Positions 49,997-56,681 of a DNA stretch of 64,000 bases are shown here, piece by piece. The first letter of the stretch is position 1. Every line of letters begins with the position of its first letter. The notes beneath the pieces were generated by a model. It had not been told where the DNA came from and ran no database searches. It saw nothing but the letters and a program-made list of their open reading frames with translations. A program made the position numbers and the translations under genes. Location of the stretch: assembly GCA_041744215.1 (NCBI GenBank), contig JBGTLG010000015.1:96001-160000 (forward strand). The letters are read 5' to 3'. The stretch comes from Fimbriimonadales bacterium. Lineage in GTDB: Bacteria; Armatimonadota; Fimbriimonadia; Fimbriimonadales; ATM1.

Positions 49997-51301
49997 ATGC
50001 CCCACCGAGACCGCCAGCTCATTTCCGCGGTTCACCTCGCCACTAAGAAGCTATCAGCTACGACGAGCGTCGAGGAGACGCTCCGTGAAGTTTTGGAGAT
50101 TTGCGTCCAGGCGGTTGGGGCGTACGGAGGCACCATCTATATCCACGACCCGTCCGGTAGCGTTCTGGTGTTTCGTCACGTCCTGCCGGAGAGCGTTCGG
50201 GATTCTCTCCCTCCCGAGATCCCAGACACCTTTGGGATTGCCGGAGAGGTGTTCCAAACGGGCGTGCCCCAGATCGCCAGCGTGGAGGACCGAGGAGGCT
50301 CCTCCACCCCCTCCTCGGAGATCGAAGAAGCTACCGGGGTGCGAGTAACTTCGATGCTCACTGCCCCTCTTGCCGTCGCAGGTATGGACCCAATTGGCGT
50401 CGTTCAACTCCTTAACAAGGAAGGTGGCGAGTTTGAGGAGCGTGAGATCCAGATCATCGAAACCGTCTCGGCGGTGAGCGCGATGGCCTATTTGAACTCT
50501 GTGCTGACCGAGCAGTCGAATCGGGCGGCGAGTATGATCGGTATGGGTGCCGTAGGACATGACATCTACAACCTGGCCGCGGCGCTCAGGGGTGCTGCCC
50601 AGTTGATGGAGATGGCGGTTCAGCAGGTTGAGCAGGATCCCGAGGCAAGCGTCGAGGAGCTTAGGGAGTCGCTCCAAGACTTGATGTCCGGAGTTGAGAC
50701 GATCGTCGGGTACAGCGCGATCATCAATAAGCTCTCGAAGGGCGCAGCGATGACGCCGGAGAAGCGAGCAGGCGAGTTCAGCGAAGCCGTTCGCAAAGCG
50801 GCAGCCTACATTGAGGCAACCGCCAGAAGCGAGCACCAAATTGGCATTTGCTACCAGATTGAGCCTGACGGGCGCCAAAGTCTATTCGACAGTCATTACG
50901 TCAACAGAATCGTTCAAAACTTAGTCGGCAATGCGGTCAAGGCTACAGTTGAGTCGGTGGACTTAAGACAAGCACGCACTGTGCTGTACGAGGATGATCG
51001 CGGTCCAGTCTATGACGAGGTCATCATACGATACTCGCTGCGAGACGGCTGCCATGTTATCGAAGTCAAAGACAGTGGCATGGGAATGACCGAAGCTACA
51101 AAACGCAAGATTCTCGGGGGGACAGCAGGCAGCGGGTGGTCAAAGAGCGGGGGCACTGGCTGGGGTACCCGAACCGTCATCGAGCTAACCGCTGCGCATG
51201 GGGGCCGACTTGAAATCGAATCGACCCCGGGTGAGGGGAGCCTGTTTCGTGTCGTTCTTCCGCTGGAACCTGCATCGACCGAGGTAGCTGCACACGTATG
51301 A
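49997..51301 (+). CDS. Cytoplasmic GAF-domain sensor histidine kinase
   Basis: GAF (GIAG.V, SML.APL, IGVVQLLNK), H-box GHDIYN, N-box NLVGNAVKA, DSGMGM, GGTGWG, S.PGEGS.F.V.LP. Confidence 0.88.
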   Translation: MPHRDRQLISAVHLATKKLSATTSVEETLREVLEICVQAVGAYGGTIYIHDPSGSVLVFRHVLPESVRDSLPPEIPDTFGIAGEVFQTGVPQIASVEDRGGSSTPSSEIEEATGVRVTSMLTAPLAVAGMDPIGVVQLLNKEGGEFEEREIQIIETVSAVSAMAYLNSVLTEQSNRAASMIGMGAVGHDIYNLAAALRGAAQLMEMAVQQVEQDPEASVEELRESLQDLMSGVETIVGYSAIINKLSKGAAMTPEKRAGEFSEAVRKAAAYIEATARSEHQIGICYQIEPDGRQSLFDSHYVNRIVQNLVGNAVKATVESVDLRQARTVLYEDDRGPVYDEVIIRYSLRDGCHVIEVKDSGMGMTEATKRKILGGTAGSGWSKSGGTGWGTRTVIELTAAHGGRLEIESTPGEGSLFRVVLPLEPASTEVAAHV

Positions 51302-52287
51302 ACATCTGGATGGATGCAGGAAACTACCAGCCCTCCAGGCGAAATCGATGGAAACGCGCAATTGGCGCTTTCCTGTACACGCTCGTTTGTATCTTTGCGC
51401 TTGGCCTCGGCTCTCTCCAAGGGTTGCGCTATTCCAACCCGCTCTTAGCTGAAGGGTTCATGCGCAAGGTGGTTCCCAGCTTTAGCGCTGATCCGTTCGC
51501 GGGACGCGACGAGATCGTAATCCTCGCTCTTGGTACTGACAAAGACTACGATGAACACAACCGCGTCGTGAGTTCGTCTGCTCGCGCTGATTCGATTCAG
51601 TTAGTGCGCCTGGACTTCGCGAACAACGCGATCGGTATCTTCGGGATCCCGCGAGATACCTACGTCGAGATACGCGGCTATAGGCCCATGAAGATCAATG
51701 AACTTCACAAATTCGGCGGCGGCGAGGCTGTTGCGCAAGCAGTCTATGAACTGGTAGGCATTCGTCCGGACAAGATCGTCGAAGTGGACTTCGACTTTGT
51801 GCGTCAGGCTGTGAATACTGTCGCAGGAGTGGAAATCTACATCAACAAGAGAATGAAGTACACAGACAGGAGCGGTAATCTATTCATCGACTTCCATCCG
51901 GGTCGCACAACACTCACAGGAGACCAAGCGCTAGGCTTCATTCGATACAGGCAAGACAGCGAAGTCGACCGCGGCAGACGCCAGCAAGACTTCCTAATAG
52001 CATTCAAAAGGCGCGTCTCCAAGAGTCCAGAGTACATCCCCGAACTCTCGAAGCTGATCATGGATACTCTTGACGACTACTTGACAGAACAAGAAGTGTT
52101 TAGCATCGCTGACTTTGCGAGGAGTGTTCCAACCGCAAAAGTTCGACACGGTACGCTCCCGGTAAGAGAAGGCCCGATGTATCCGAAGTTCTACTATTAT
52201 CCAATCCGTGAAGAAGTCGCGCAAGCGCTTGTCAATGCCGGAATGCGCGCCGGCTCAGCGACTGCTGGGTCGGTGTCCGTTCGGTGA
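51298..52287 (+). CDS. LCP (LytR-CpsA-Psr) family glycopolymer transferase
   Basis: TM anchor. IL.LGTD, RADSI, IPRDTYV, KIN, L.G.QALGFIRYR, D..R..RQQ.F. Confidence 0.92.
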   Translation: MNIWMDAGNYQPSRRNRWKRAIGAFLYTLVCIFALGLGSLQGLRYSNPLLAEGFMRKVVPSFSADPFAGRDEIVILALGTDKDYDEHNRVVSSSARADSIQLVRLDFANNAIGIFGIPRDTYVEIRGYRPMKINELHKFGGGEAVAQAVYELVGIRPDKIVEVDFDFVRQAVNTVAGVEIYINKRMKYTDRSGNLFIDFHPGRTTLTGDQALGFIRYRQDSEVDRGRRQQDFLIAFKRRVSKSPEYIPELSKLIMDTLDDYLTEQEVFSIADFARSVPTAKVRHGTLPVREGPMYPKFYYYPIREEVAQALVNAGMRAGSATAGSVSVR

Positions 52288-53099
52288 TACTTTTCTTTGC
52301 AATTGACGAAGAAGATCGCGATATCGAAAGGCGGTCATCAGAGCACGTACAACTCGGTAAGTTCTTTCTGCGGGGGGCAATCGCGTTTGCAATTCTGTTG
52401 CTCATTTTCACACCTGTCTATTTGAACTGTCGCCAGCAAATGCTTCGTGTAGTGACCCAAGAGAACCTTCGGACGCTCTTCCAGGGTGTGTCGCTTTACG
52501 CGGACGCGAACAACGAAGGACTTCCGCCGCTCTACGAGCGAGCAGGGCCGGAAATGCCGGTCATAGATCGAAATGGCAACCCAATCATTTGGGCAACCCA
52601 CGTGATGGGGTACGTCGAGGCGTACCGGCTTCGCAATCCTAAGACCCCGCAGGATTCGCAAGTTCGCCTTACTGTCTCCACTACGTCATCGGGATCGTCG
52701 ACAACATATCTCGGGTATGGGATGGCGTCTTCTCTTGATACGACGCGACTATACGACATCACCAACAAAGACTCTGTACTCTTCGCAGAAACAACCTCCG
52801 GCGGTCGAAATGGCAGCCTGAACCCCTTGCCTCTTGCATTCGCATCGGATGGCTTCATGATCGGCTTCGACGATACCAACCTGCCAGGCGCAGGCCCAAC
52901 GAGAGACTCGCAGTTTGCAACACGGTTGGCATTTTCAAGCCGAGGAGGAACCAACTCGATCAGCGATATGGAACCGCTGCACGAAGATGGGACCCTGGCG
53001 ATTTCTGCTGACGGGCGCATCCTCTACCTAAAGCCATCCGATCAAATCGTCCAAAAGGCCGGTACACTACCTACTGGTCTATGGGCGCCTTTTCGGTAA
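52284..53099 (+). CDS. Pilin-like (DUF1559-type) protein with C-terminal H-X9-DG motif and no prepilin cleavage site
   Basis: TM ending IFTPVY, then NLRTLFQGVSLYADANNEGLP. C-terminal H-EDGTLAISA-DG. Confidence 0.65.
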   Translation: MILFFAIDEEDRDIERRSSEHVQLGKFFLRGAIAFAILLLIFTPVYLNCRQQMLRVVTQENLRTLFQGVSLYADANNEGLPPLYERAGPEMPVIDRNGNPIIWATHVMGYVEAYRLRNPKTPQDSQVRLTVSTTSSGSSTTYLGYGMASSLDTTRLYDITNKDSVLFAETTSGGRNGSLNPLPLAFASDGFMIGFDDTNLPGAGPTRDSQFATRLAFSSRGGTNSISDMEPLHEDGTLAISADGRILYLKPSDQIVQKAGTLPTGLWAPFR

Positions 53100-53119
53100 C
53101 TAACCAGGATCCGGGCTGG

Positions 53120-53800
53120 GTGAATGAGCTCGTGCGCGAGTATGCCGCGATCATAGGCGAAGATGTGCCTGCTGCCAACGGTCCAACAACGTTCGCCGTG
53201 GCCCGCGACGCGTGCCACGGCGCAGCAAAGCCGCCGCCACCTGAAAGGCTTGACATTCGAGAGTGCCGCATGGAGTGGCGATCCCATCGCATAGACGGCT
53301 CTGTCTCACCGGTCGGCCGAGTCGGTCAATTCGTTCCAGATTGCCCAGCAGACGAGACTCCACAGGTAGGCGCGCAGGTTAGACTCCGCCATGCAGACGG
53401 CGTCATGAAAGCGGTCGTTGTTGGGTATTGCGGGTCGGACGTGCTTTTGATGCGCGGGCCGACACAACGCGAACGCAGAGCCCACCAGCGCATTGGTGTC
53501 GCGGGCGTGGCCCTCGTTCGGTTCAACAGGTCCAATCAGGAAGCCAGAATAAGCGACCTGTCTGAGGGAGGGATTGGCCTCTCGTCGCCGATGGCCGTGG
53601 AGGTTGGGGGCTCGATCCACCTGTTGTTGCGCATCCACGGGAAGAAGGCGTTACCTCTTGAGTGCGACGGGATTGTAACTAGCTGCCGAGCCGTTGAGCG
53701 CGGACCACAAGGCGAACATCGCATCGGCGTAAAGTTCGTCGATCTATCGCCAAAGTTAGTTGACCGAATTCGATTGTTGCTACACGACGAGTGCTCGTAA
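53120..53800 (+). CDS. PilZ domain protein (YcgR-like layout)
   Basis: QRERRAHQR (RxxxR) and DLSEGG (DxSxxG), C-terminal GVKF. GTG 53120 is the probable start. Confidence 0.85.
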   Translation: MNELVREYAAIIGEDVPAANGPTTFAVARDACHGAAKPPPPERLDIRECRMEWRSHRIDGSVSPVGRVGQFVPDCPADETPQVGAQVRLRHADGVMKAVVVGYCGSDVLLMRGPTQRERRAHQRIGVAGVALVRFNRSNQEARISDLSEGGIGLSSPMAVEVGGSIHLLLRIHGKKALPLECDGIVTSCRAVERGPQGEHRIGVKFVDLSPKLVDRIRLLLHDECS

Positions 53801-53818: not shown

Positions 53819-55063
53819 ATGGCTAACTTGAAACGCGAATCCAGTCTGGCTGCCATGCTCGGGTTTGGTGTCTGGGTTCTCCTGGGAACCTTAGCAGTGT
53901 CGGGAATCGCGCTTGCAACACAGTACGCCCCGATCGCTGGTGGTGCCCACGCATCGGTTGTAGCGATGCGCGACAGCCCGGTGCACTCCTTTCTCTGTGA
54001 CTACCACTACTATGGGAGTGGTGTAGCGATTGCTCTCGCAGCTGTTAACCTGGCGTTTCTGCTCTGGGCCGGGAGATATGGCCGCCCGGATCGATGGCTG
54101 TGGTGGGGAGCGCTCGGAGCCTTGATCATAACAATGCTGGCGCAAGTAACCGGCAACCTTCTTCCATTCTCGCAGCATGACGTCCGCACGGCGTTCGCGG
54201 AAGGAGGCATCGCTGCCCAAACCCCGCTTATCGGACCCACGCTTCGAGCGATTGCGATAGGCGGGGAGGCCGTCGGCCAAGAGACTGTGGATAGATGGTA
54301 CTTCGCACACCGCTTTGTCGCCCCACTCCTGCTGGTTCTTCTTGCATTCCCCGCTATTCGCTCGCTCCGCAGGGAGGGATTAAAGTCAAAGCTGTGGTGG
54401 GCGATTCTTGTTCCTGCGGCCATCGCTGCAGCAGGCGCGCTCATCGTTTCTGGGCCGCTCGGCAACGCAGCGCTGCCCTCAGACCTCGCAACGGGCGCAA
54501 CGAGGCCTATGTGGTACGTGCTGCCGATGCATGCACTACTTGACACCTTGGGCGGAATCAATCCAAGCATGGGCTGGATAGGGGCGATGCTGGTGCCGGG
54601 CCTAGCGGTTACCGGTCTGATGATGCTTCCGATCCTTGTTCGTAAGTCCGCAGAGGGCGCGGCGTTCGGACGAATCGCTGTACTATTTGGGTCCGTTCTG
54701 CTCATCTTGGCAATCATCACGTATGGAGACCGGGTTCAAGGGCCTTTCGCGGACGAACCAACATTTGATGCCCCGCGAGCAGCGCCAGAGCCCACCCAGA
54801 CACCGAACCTGCCGCTCGCAGAACAAGGCAAGTTGATCTATGACGCAAACAAGTGTTCTAGCTGTCATGCCATCGGTGGCGCTGGTTCTGCGACAGCAGG
54901 ACCGAACCTCGCGGGAGTCGGCAGTCGGAGGCCGAATGTTGAAGAACTTATGGATCTCGTTCGTGATCCCCAGGCGTTCGGAATCCAAACGATGCCGGCA
55001 TACTCGGCGCTCAGCCTGAGCGAGCTGCGTGCGTTAGCCGAGTATTTGAGTTCGCTGAAGTGA
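53819..55063 (+). CDS. Cytochrome b(6)-like plus subunit IV plus monoheme cytochrome c fusion, atypical
   Basis: SGIALATQY.P, A..SV, H63, TG.LLP, P.IG......GG..VG, H164, RPMWY, CSSCH, GPNL..VG, MP. Confidence 0.8.
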   Translation: MANLKRESSLAAMLGFGVWVLLGTLAVSGIALATQYAPIAGGAHASVVAMRDSPVHSFLCDYHYYGSGVAIALAAVNLAFLLWAGRYGRPDRWLWWGALGALIITMLAQVTGNLLPFSQHDVRTAFAEGGIAAQTPLIGPTLRAIAIGGEAVGQETVDRWYFAHRFVAPLLLVLLAFPAIRSLRREGLKSKLWWAILVPAAIAAAGALIVSGPLGNAALPSDLATGATRPMWYVLPMHALLDTLGGINPSMGWIGAMLVPGLAVTGLMMLPILVRKSAEGAAFGRIAVLFGSVLLILAIITYGDRVQGPFADEPTFDAPRAAPEPTQTPNLPLAEQGKLIYDANKCSSCHAIGGAGSATAGPNLAGVGSRRPNVEELMDLVRDPQAFGIQTMPAYSALSLSELRALAEYLSSLK

Positions 55064-55071
55064 GAGGGAGT

Positions 55072-55147
55072 TGGCGCGCTCGAGAGGACTCGAACCTCCG
55101 ACCTACAGGTCCGCAACCTGTTGCTCTATCCACTGAGCTACGAGCGC
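55072..55147 (-). tRNA. tRNA-Arg, anticodon GCG
   Basis: GCGCTCG-TA-GCTC-AGTGGATA-GAGC-A-ACAGG-TTGCGGA-CCTGT-AGGTC-GGAGG-TTCGAGT-CCTCT-CGAGCGC-G-CCA. Full 76-nt cloverleaf with A20, G37 and encoded CCA. Confidence 0.95.
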
Positions 55148-55209: not shown

Positions 55210-55968
55210 ATGATTTCGAATTCGAACCCACGATCCTTCGCGGACCTAGTTGGATTTCCCGATTCACTGCGATCACCTACCTTAGGCGCGCACGACACCC
55301 ATGGAACTACGGTGCTTTGCCTTCGCTATAAGGACGGCATCTTGAACCTCGGCGATCGTCGGGCCACAGCGGCGAATTACATCATGTATGATCGCGCCAA
55401 GAAGATATTGCGACTGGACGATCACACGCTGGTTGCAATCTCGGGTTCATTCGCTCGCAGTACCGAGATTGCACGCTACTTGCGACATGCATTCAAATAC
55501 TATTCCCGGACGCAACTTCAGGACATGAGTGTTGAAGGCAAGTTGCAGGAAGTCAGCCGCGCCCTCGCCGGAAATCTAAGTATGTCGCTCGAAGGGATTG
55601 GCATCTTTCTCCCTATCGTTAGCGCGTACGATCCCGCGTCTGACTCGCTGGGCATTTACTTCTACGACGTAATGGGAGCGCGCTTCGAGAGCGGTCAATA
55701 CGGTTGCGCCGGCTCTGGCTCTCATCGGATACAGGGGGTCTTTGAGTACATACAGCGGCAGCAAGGAAACTTCGAGGAGCGAGAACTTGAAGAAGTGCTC
55801 TTGGATGGCCTGACTATGCTCGACATCGCTTCGGAGCTCGACTCTGCGACAGGGAATCTTTCGATGCCATTGCCTATCGCAAAGACTCTGACTAAGCACG
55901 GCATCGAGGACATCAACGAACAATTGCTTCGCGAATCCGTGTTGTCCGTTCAAAAGGGTAAGGGTTAG
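55210..55968 (+). CDS. prcB: 20S proteasome beta subunit
   Basis: 32-aa propeptide ending HG/TTV (catalytic Thr33), GDRRAT, K.I, E..L....K, YD..G, GSGS, D.ATG. Confidence 0.9.
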   Translation: MISNSNPRSFADLVGFPDSLRSPTLGAHDTHGTTVLCLRYKDGILNLGDRRATAANYIMYDRAKKILRLDDHTLVAISGSFARSTEIARYLRHAFKYYSRTQLQDMSVEGKLQEVSRALAGNLSMSLEGIGIFLPIVSAYDPASDSLGIYFYDVMGARFESGQYGCAGSGSHRIQGVFEYIQRQQGNFEERELEEVLLDGLTMLDIASELDSATGNLSMPLPIAKTLTKHGIEDINEQLLRESVLSVQKGKG

Positions 55969-55973
55969 AATCT

Positions 55974-56681
55974 ATGTTGTCCCCTTATGATTGGCAAGAG
56001 AGCATAAGCCAACGCGCCCAGTACATTGAAAACCGCATCAAGAGCGGGTCGCCGATAGTGGGGCTATCCATTGATGCCGGCTGCATTTTGTACACGTATC
56101 GAAAGCACATTCGAAAAGTCTACGAAGTCTATGATCGCATGATGTTTTCAGCGATCGGTCAGCAGGCAGACGTCGAATCAATGCGCGTGACTTCGATCGA
56201 CTTTGCACACCAGGAAGGATTTGCACATAGTGAGGACGATGTGACCATCGGCCGACTTGTTGGTTTCGCCCTCAGCGGCCCCATGAAGCGTGCTTTCGGG
56301 GATCTCACCGTAGCTCCGTTTGTCATCCATGCGCTGTTCGCGGAGATGAACGCAAAACCAGCAGAAGACCTGTTCATTTGGCTGCACTATGACGGGGATT
56401 TCGTCGCACACAGGCAGTTCGCAGTTGCCGCTGGCACGCGCGATTCCGAGAAGCGGATGGTCGAGTTTTTGTCAAGTGCGTATCGTCCCGACTTGTCGGT
56501 GGAAGAGGCTTTCGGAATTGCTGACCAAGCATGGCGCATCGGAGCCGATCGCGATGTTGACGGTGTCCCGGATGAGGAACTCCTGTCGGATGCCTTCCCC
56601 GAGATCGGTTTTCTTGAGCGAAACGTTGAACGCGTGCGCAGATTTCGTCTCATTCAGCAGGATTCGAAGCACTCCAGGTAG
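55974..56681 (+). CDS. prcA: 20S proteasome alpha subunit
   Basis: PYDW....R..Y....I..GSP.V, KVYEVYDR..F.A.G...D.E..R, S..DVT, P.....LFAE, YDG, L.R.....R.FR. Follows prcB. Confidence 0.88.
   Translation: MLSPYDWQESISQRAQYIENRIKSGSPIVGLSIDAGCILYTYRKHIRKVYEVYDRMMFSAIGQQADVESMRVTSIDFAHQEGFAHSEDDVTIGRLVGFALSGPMKRAFGDLTVAPFVIHALFAEMNAKPAEDLFIWLHYDGDFVAHRQFAVAAGTRDSEKRMVEFLSSAYRPDLSVEEAFGIADQAWRIGADRDVDGVPDEELLSDAFPEIGFLERNVERVRRFRLIQQDSKHSR

Follow-up and report, generated by a model that had tools for sequence, protein, structure and literature searches.

The window considered here, meaning the whole stretch of 64,000 nucleotides that was analysed, originates from a Fimbriimonadales bacterium (contig JBGTLG010000015.1 of assembly GCA_041744215.1, positions 96,001 to 160,000 of the forward strand), whose genome (G000) comprises 2.68 Mb and is 93% complete. 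On its plus strand, an open reading frame (ORF) at positions 53819-55063, beginning with an ATG start and closing with the stop codon at 55061-55063, encodes a protein of 414 amino acids (aa), in which a cytochrome b domain, a subunit-IV-like part and a cytochrome c domain are fused into one chain. In cytochromes b, the first pair of histidines in helices B and D holds haem bL (or bp), and the second pair holds haem bH (or bn); the 414-aa protein retains the first pair and lacks the second. It represents a family of short b-c fusions, which was compared throughout with the canonical fused cytochromes b/c, and its features are the following:

53819..55063, plus strand: fusion of cytochrome b, subunit-IV-like part and cytochrome c (ORF, Pfam, AlphaFold2 (AF2) model, fold match)
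53819..54388, plus strand: cytochrome b6-like four-helix domain, residues 1-190, with a short N-terminus (PF13631/PF00033, b6 alignment)
54005..54007, plus strand: His63 in helix B, bL ligand kept, aligned to the first helix-B His of b6; 98% in 122 family representatives
54047..54049, plus strand: Asn77 at the helix-B bH position; His in canonical rows, never His in clade I
54143..54202, plus strand: C-D loop and cd1 helix, rebuilt as judged by alignment, with Gln109 and GNLLPFSQHDVRTAFAE containing His120, Thr124 and Glu128; each in at least 92% of family and at most 14% of canonical rows
54296..54298, plus strand: Trp160, family-specific, start of helix D; 97% in the family versus 3% in canonical rows (mostly Phe)
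54308..54310, plus strand: His164 in helix D, bL ligand kept (b6 alignment); 98% conserved
54350..54355, plus strand: Pro178/Ala179 at the helix-D bH position; no His in 25 orthologues, His in canonical rows
54389..54733, plus strand: subunit-IV-like three-helix part, residues 191-305 (weak PF00032, model helices, fold match)
54506..54532, plus strand: E-F loop motif PMWYVLPMH, with Met231 in place of the PEWY glutamate and a new His238 (alignments)
54734..54817, plus strand: Pro-rich linker, residues 306-333 (sequence; lower pLDDT of 65-69)
54818..55060, plus strand: class I cytochrome c domain (PF00034/PF13442); Cys, Cys, His and Met 100% conserved in the family
54854-54868, plus strand: CSSCH (346-350) of the cytochrome c domain (Pfam, conservation)
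54992-54994, plus strand: Met392 of the cytochrome c domain (Pfam, conservation)

Domain architecture and haem ligands

Both terminal parts of the protein were recognized by Pfam, with Cytochrom_B_N_2/Cytochrome_B spanning residues 14-180 (54.8 and 41.4 bits, both past the cut-offs) and Cytochrom_C (PF00034) covering residues 334-414 (42.3 bits), while Cytochrom_B_C (PF00032) at residues 229-296 reached 19.0 bits and stayed under its cut-off of 20.7. No NCBIfam model passed its cut-off for the protein: the best one, ExtP b-type cytochrome (NF040969), scored 75.1 bits versus 290, and cytochrome b6 (NF002990) scored 66 bits versus a curated cut-off of 325. The AF2 model, computed with 19 family sequences as input, reached a pLDDT of 87.4 and a pTM of 0.84, and its fold resembles the long cytochrome b of bc1 complexes (TM 0.5-0.64 across ~320-380 columns). 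Since the model contains seven helices and the orientation of the bc fold is established, the c domain is predicted to lie on the periplasmic side. A complex prediction of the cytochrome b body (residues 1-310) with the c domain (330-414) and two haems scored 0.08 against a mark of 0.32 and counts neither way. The original prediction, which had been made from the letters and ORFs of the window, described a fusion of these three parts with CSSCH and Met392, and ORF, Pfam and model bear this out.

Among proteins of solved structure, cytochromes b6 are the best sequence relatives of the 414-aa protein. In the phmmer alignment with cytochrome b6 (1vf5_A, E 1.5e-12), His63 and Asn77 fall on the first and second histidines of helix B, and His164 and Ala179 on the first and second of helix D. 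A further alignment (A1) of 24 rows, consisting of 19 family members and five canonical fused cytochromes b/c, extends this to the family: both bH columns are devoid of His in all 19 family rows, and both contain His in all five canonical ones. Compared with the canonical rows, each of the 19 family members is also short by ~45 N-terminal residues and by 19 columns of the D-E linker, and each reads PMWY. What had been noted for the single protein, namely kept bL ligands, lost bH ligands, a shortened N-terminus and D-E linker, and PMWY, is accordingly shared by its close relatives. Several natural PEWY variants have been listed by Kao and Hunte, PMWY not being among those in their main text, and a literature search for PMWY as a whole word found no paper. 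Among the features that define Rieske/cytochrome b enzymes, the 414-aa protein is without the full set of four histidines, a Rieske partner and the Qi segments, and its clade departs from a fourth in that PEWY reads PMWY.

The family and its Qo-region residues

By means of a clustered-protein search, 18 more proteins of 392-425 aa with 35-53% identity to the 414-aa protein were retrieved, together with canonical fused cytochromes b/c of 480-580 aa. The short relatives carrying names are assigned to Armatimonadota/Fimbriimonadales, one of them bearing a Caldarchaeum label. A profile search of 1.84 billion representatives yielded 549 matches at E <=1e-30, and His120 and His238 occur together in 117 of the 174 proteins collected. 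A tree was calculated with FastTree from 158 representative rows with enough columns, in which one branch (support 98) splits 122 family rows from 36 canonical ones; the tree is quick and unrooted, and it stands for a clean split and not for a dated origin. The family is a single clade.

Within a sample of 401 Armatimonadota genomes, 54 of them from the order of the window, matches of at least 278 bits were obtained in 18 genomes, all belonging to one order (two families), and the next full-length matches below the family were found at 167-192 bits. Forms intermediate between the family and canonical cytochrome b were not found among the 401 genomes and the second copies. So far, the family has been seen only in one Armatimonadota order, a restriction resting on the 401-genome search and on the names of the relatives. 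A look-up of the homologue P0008 returned clusters of fused cytochromes b/c, some of them, ~404-410 aa long with Acidobacteriota as the commonest phylum, being candidates for members outside this order.

Six residues set the family apart from the canonical proteins. Gln109, His120, Thr124, Glu128, Trp160 and His238 are present in 92-100% of the 122 family rows and in 0-14% of the 36 canonical rows, with His238 reaching 99% in the former and 0% in the latter, and His120, Glu128 and His238 were detected in all 25 genomic orthologues. According to the alignments, the six positions occupy the end of helix C, the cd1 helix, the beginning of helix D and a site just past the PEWY position, which places them in the C-D and E-F loops of the outer Qo region. 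The positions that presumably correspond in mitochondrial cytochrome b (Met139, Gly143, Ile147 and Tyr279) are classic sites of the Qo pocket and of inhibitor resistance. Judged by its sequence, the outer quinol pocket is rebuilt in the family. Three types can be distinguished: type I, to which the 414-aa protein belongs, features Asn113, HDxRT and PMWY; type II features H(G/A/D)xQT and has the PEWY glutamate replaced by S, G or N; and type III features His113 and retains PEWY, its named members being Fimbriimonadaceae.

The ratio of non-synonymous to synonymous substitutions (dN/dS) was 0.049 for the pair L030/L031 (dS 1.33) and 0.152 for L028/L029, and it stayed below 0.2 in every domain; these two pairs carry the estimate, as most pairs were saturated at synonymous sites (dS undefined or >2). 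Because the losses are common to a monophyletic family, dN/dS lies between 0.05 and 0.15, and six new residues were acquired, the comparison supports the view, already expressed in the original prediction, that the losses are kept by purifying selection and do not reflect strain-specific decay. The fact that the family gained a conserved signature besides losing ligands likewise argues against decay.

Respiratory setting and neighbouring genes

The 414-aa protein is the sole PF00033 match in G000, and no other cytochrome b was found in 12 of the 19 carrier genomes. Two Rieske matches were detected in G000, one of 359 aa with an oxygenase-type motif (assigned by eye) and one of 165 aa with a TAT signal, located on contig 26. 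Regarding small Rieske frames, counted by length, 11 of the 19 carrier genomes possess one, and eight do not, two of these having no match and six having only frames of 361-394 aa. A Rieske or other redox gene adjoining the cytochrome was found in none of the ten contexts inspected (the window and nine related loci); for the window, the lack of an adjacent Rieske gene had been stated originally.

The TAT-signal Rieske protein of G000 (C26:50068-50565) has boxes of bc type, CTHLSC...CPCHNG. It is encoded (L004:8801-11162, also L052) along with a 199-aa 4Fe-4S protein, an 88-aa membrane protein and a 345-aa divergent membrane protein without Pfam match, and two NarK-like transporters, Crp, MobA and a molybdopterin oxidoreductase are encoded nearby. 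A syntenic cluster in G078 comprises a Mo-enzyme, an FeS/cytochrome c protein, Rieske, a canonical cytochrome b (397 aa) and two consecutive NarK genes; owing to this synteny with a Mo-enzyme/cytochrome b cluster, the Rieske protein of G000 is assigned to another module. Compared with G078, the cytochrome b of this cluster appears to be missing or replaced in G000.

ActD of alternative complex III (ACIII) was detected in all 49 genomes of the order that were searched, and G000 encodes a complete ACIII beside a caa3 oxidase, as well as a few small c cytochromes. The presence of ACIII in every genome searched implies that the b-c fusion is an accessory and not the main complex III. The sequencing runs listed (four DNA runs of one study with hot-spring/biofilm labels) include no RNA runs, which has no bearing on expression.

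The genes next to the cytochrome gene are the following:

49997..53800, plus strand: co-oriented upstream cluster, from the GAF-HATPase to the PilZ gene; order kept in the window and seven of nine loci
49997-51301, plus strand: GAF-HATPase kinase-like gene (ORF, Pfam)
51298-52287, plus strand: LCP gene (ORF, Pfam)
52284-53099, plus strand: gene for an H-X9-DG-like membrane protein of 271 aa (ORF; alignment A3)
53081-53800, plus strand: PilZ gene, upstream flank (Pfam)
55072-55147, minus strand: tRNA-Arg, downstream flank

The flanks thus correspond to the PilZ gene and the tRNA reported originally. The order GAF-HATPase, LCP, 271-aa protein, (PilZ) and cytochrome is kept in the window and in seven of the nine related loci. 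In L009 and L011, the neighbours of the cytochrome differ (hydantoinase, Pup ligase and mannosyltransferase). A functional operon of the cytochrome with the GAF-kinase, LCP, 271-aa and PilZ genes was considered and largely rejected, since the 271-aa protein was detected in all 49 of the order's genomes, whether or not they encode the cytochrome, and is unlinked in the sister family f2, where both genes reside on different contigs or megabases apart. The upstream cluster probably represents lineage-specific synteny and not a functional partner. In a scan for promoters and terminators, the sites did not exceed those of shuffled controls.

The 271-aa protein is a single-pass membrane protein without Pfam match, which carries an invariant N-terminal motif of acidic and basic residues (EEDRDxERR) and a C-terminal motif that we take to be H-X9-DG-like. 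Directly downstream, at 55210-56681 of the window (plus strand), two proteasome-family genes encoding 252 and 235 aa were identified (Pfam Proteasome, E 1e-22 and 7.6e-10), and Pup-ligase genes are located near the cytochrome in two related loci (L009:14817-16322 and L011:11209-12681). These observations suggest a Pup-proteasome system in the Armatimonadota order of the window.

Proposed function and known systems

We tentatively favour, at a confidence somewhat short of even, the reading that the protein is a stand-alone, Rieske-independent and non-bifurcating menaquinol:cytochrome c oxidoreductase serving as an accessory route, and that it descends from a menaquinol:cytochrome c reductase, namely from its fused cytochrome b/c subunit. 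The periplasm-side half alone would have been kept, comprising one b haem (bL, held by His63 and His164), a rebuilt pocket derived from the Qo site and a tethered c haem. Menaquinol would bind in the pocket lined by His120, Thr124, Glu128 and His238, where the new His and Glu residues may accept hydrogen bonds and protons in place of the Rieske histidine and the PEWY glutamate and would pass the protons on to the periplasm. Both electrons would be transferred in turn to the fused haem c and from there, via a cytochrome c that is either soluble or anchored, to the caa3 oxidase, or else to another periplasmic acceptor, with haem bL functioning as a relay or as a temporary store for the second electron. 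Because there is one outer b haem and nothing on the inner face, neither transmembrane electron transfer nor a Q cycle would be expected from what is established for bc complexes, and the enzyme would form a side route to the ACIII-caa3 chain. Its redox partners would be the membrane quinone pool, by way of the rebuilt pocket, and periplasmic proteins, by way of the tethered c haem. The quinone is likely a menaquinone, since MK-10/11 have been reported from a cultivated representative of the class (PMC4072686). Among the three functions put forward in the original prediction, the non-bifurcating quinol:cytochrome c oxidoreductase is the one that fits best, the function itself being what we infer from this fit.

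Several observations weigh against this reading. Haem bL and the docking site of the Rieske protein are far apart in bc1 complexes, for which reason electrons may pass slowly if they go straight from bL to haem c. Across the family, the position of the PEWY glutamate is variable (M, S, G, N, A or E). Some type III members have Q, N or E at the site of His120, and the bL ligand His63 is replaced by Gln in the orthologue L028 (G156:C39) and in two representatives (P0057 and P0133). At the same position, L029, which is 70% identical to L028, retains His. Intact copies are present in 18 of the 54 genomes of the order and missing from approximately two thirds, and in the single-contig genome G138 the family member (G138:C1:2780080-2781269, L023) is split into two adjacent frames covering profile positions 10-209 and 210-411, being either a frameshifted pseudogene or a sequencing error. 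Together, the split copy, the Gln in place of His63 and the patchy distribution indicate that the gene can be lost. Furthermore, the helix-B bH histidine is kept in 8 of 14 members of the sister clade (family f2), whereas the helix-D one is kept in none of the 25 aligned orthologues, from which a stepwise loss can be deduced; the original claim that all cytoplasm-side elements were lost together holds for the clade of the window and does not hold for its sister. The f2 members with a helix-B bH histidine may possess a second cofactor.

Additional residues were observed near these positions. In L032, L033, L036-L039 and L041 (f2, clade II), a second His precedes the helix-B bH histidine by four residues (H-x3-H), L035 keeps this histidine with a Gln four residues earlier, and a few representatives carry a His ~18-19 residues past the helix-D bL ligand; an N-side cofactor with a different ligation is conceivable in such members.

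An alternative that we regard as unlikely is that His120, Glu128 and His238 hold an additional metal or haem where the Qo pocket used to be, a cofactor which would replace the Rieske cluster as first acceptor or complete a b-X-c wire, the protein then being an electron-transfer module with its substrate site elsewhere. Two histidines and a carboxylate constitute a common metal-binding set, and here they are conserved in 92-100% of the 122 family rows and in all 25 orthologues while being almost absent from canonical proteins; however, the convergence of the three residues is an assumption made from sequence, the substitutions of His120 in several type III members do not fit, and quinone sites feature His and Glu just as typically. 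Somewhat less probable still is an inert, vestigial remnant with a structural role, for which the accessible part of PMC10715153 offers a precedent in the 'deranged' bc1 of Acidiphilium/Acidocella. The patchy distribution, the split copy and the copy without His63 would be in line with it, as would the fact that ACIII already covers the reaction, but the low dN/dS values and the conservation of the haem b and c ligands (98-100%) are not, and decay does not yield a gained signature such as the six new conserved residues of the Qo loops.

A sensor function, in which the protein would monitor the redox state of the quinone pool or of periplasmic cytochrome c and feed the upstream GAF-histidine-kinase/PilZ genes, is considered improbable. 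Its basis is the conserved gene order, with genes that overlap or are closely spaced, and the fact that no plus-strand promoter- or terminator-like sites were found between the genes, which is weak evidence. Against it, the 271-aa protein occurs in far more genomes of the order (49/49) than the intact cytochrome (18/54), the cytochrome has other neighbours in L009 and L011, and the shortened cytoplasmic loops offer little surface for signalling to a soluble kinase; the idea of a quinone-pool sensor, raised originally, is weakened, as the larger sister lineage has not retained the kinase/PilZ neighbourhood. Even more improbable is a subunit of a larger complex whose Rieske protein or second cytochrome b is encoded elsewhere, e.g., by G000 C26:50068-50565. 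A small Rieske protein with bc-type boxes does exist in G000, and 11 carriers have a small Rieske frame, but the former resides in its own 4Fe-4S/Mo-enzyme-side module syntenic with G078, 8 of the 19 carriers have no such frame and 12 have no other cytochrome b. Moreover, the rewritten cd1/E-F surface is the area in which the Rieske head docks. The related proposal of a passive half of a heterodimeric complex loses ground for the same lack of a second cytochrome b in G000 and in most carriers.

Outside the family, the nearest relatives are canonical fused cytochromes b/c of other Armatimonadota (P0020; L018-L022; 158-265 bits), which likewise run on one chain from cytochrome b through subunit IV to class I cytochrome c and have a very similar cytochrome c tail. 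In contrast to the family of the window, these possess four histidines, GYLLPWDxKAYWAT and PEWY, have a long N-terminus and a long D-E linker, and adjoin a Rieske gene. The four histidines, GYLLPWDxKAYWAT and PEWY were present in all five intermediate-scoring loci and in all four second copies, each of which adjoins a Rieske gene. Comparison with QcrB/QcrC of the Bacillus-type b6c complex and with b6/subunit IV of the b6f complex is suggested by cytochrome b6 (1vf5_A) as the best solved match to the family, and the fusion of subunit IV to a c-type cytochrome is what we take to be the QcrC design; however, b6c and b6f enzymes keep bH (and haem cn), the Qi site, Rieske and the Q cycle, and the family does not. 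ACIII would catalyse the same overall reaction in the same genomes without a Rieske/cytochrome b Q cycle, but its fold and subunits (NrfD-like, FeS and multihaem proteins) are unrelated.

The loss of bH ligands itself is not new and has been published for other lineages. In the 'deranged' bc1 of Acidiphilium/Acidocella, both bH histidines are lost and the Rieske protein is absent or devoid of cluster ligands, as described in the accessible part of PMC10715153; in these features this type and the family resemble each other. The 'deranged' bc1 is, however, encoded by an alphaproteobacterial petABC operon with a separate cytochrome c1 and was read as degenerate, and in that part of PMC10715153 neither an N-side truncation nor a fused c domain nor new pocket residues are mentioned. 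The family, by contrast, belongs to another phylum according to the names of its relatives, has a fused c domain and has no pet operon. The accessible sections of two further papers describe subfamily K of cyanobacteria, in which the helix-2 His is replaced and the function was called obscure (PMC5600118), and a Pyrobaculum cytochrome b that lacks only the fourth His, with haem loss being suggested (PMC4122944). As far as these sections go, both resemble the family as natural lineages with a systematic replacement of bn/bH ligands; unlike the family, subfamily K consists of short b6-type proteins that have neither a subunit IV nor a c domain of their own, and neither of the two lineages is a single-chain b-c fusion. 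Rows named 'cytochrome b' for hot-spring Armatimonadota in the accessible supplements of PMC11788075 were also considered and rejected, the protein having 13 haem c motifs and belonging to another family.

No description of this particular family was found in the accessible literature on Fimbriimonadia/Armatimonadota, most subscription journals lying outside the coverage. The term 'undescribed system' used originally was too strong in view of the published bH-less cytochromes b; what is apparently undescribed is a lineage-restricted, conserved cytochrome b variant that combines losses with gains. It is conceivable, with a probability clearly below even, that the family embodies a third, minimal design of quinol:cytochrome c oxidoreductase, in which one chain with one b and one c haem, without Rieske, bH and Qi, would oxidize menaquinol without bifurcation in a re-engineered Qo pocket (His120/Thr124/Glu128/His238, possibly metal-bound). 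If true, this would be a natural 'half bc complex' showing what a Qo site can do alone. Research on bc complexes has long asked how semiquinone chemistry is controlled at the Qo site and how short circuits are avoided there, and a naturally evolved, bL-only cytochrome b under purifying selection with a rewritten Qo pocket and its own c haem, operating without Rieske, would be a simple system for studying an isolated Qo site. Reconstructions of respiratory chains would, in that case, have to include an added route.

In databases, the family proteins bear the ordinary name 'ubiquinol-cytochrome c reductase cytochrome b subunit', on account of which a complex III that does not exist may be predicted by genome-based metabolic models of Fimbriimonadales. 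In one survey, sequences without any one of the four histidines were discarded, as stated in the accessible part of PMC4122944, and a filter of this kind would remove the present family by design.

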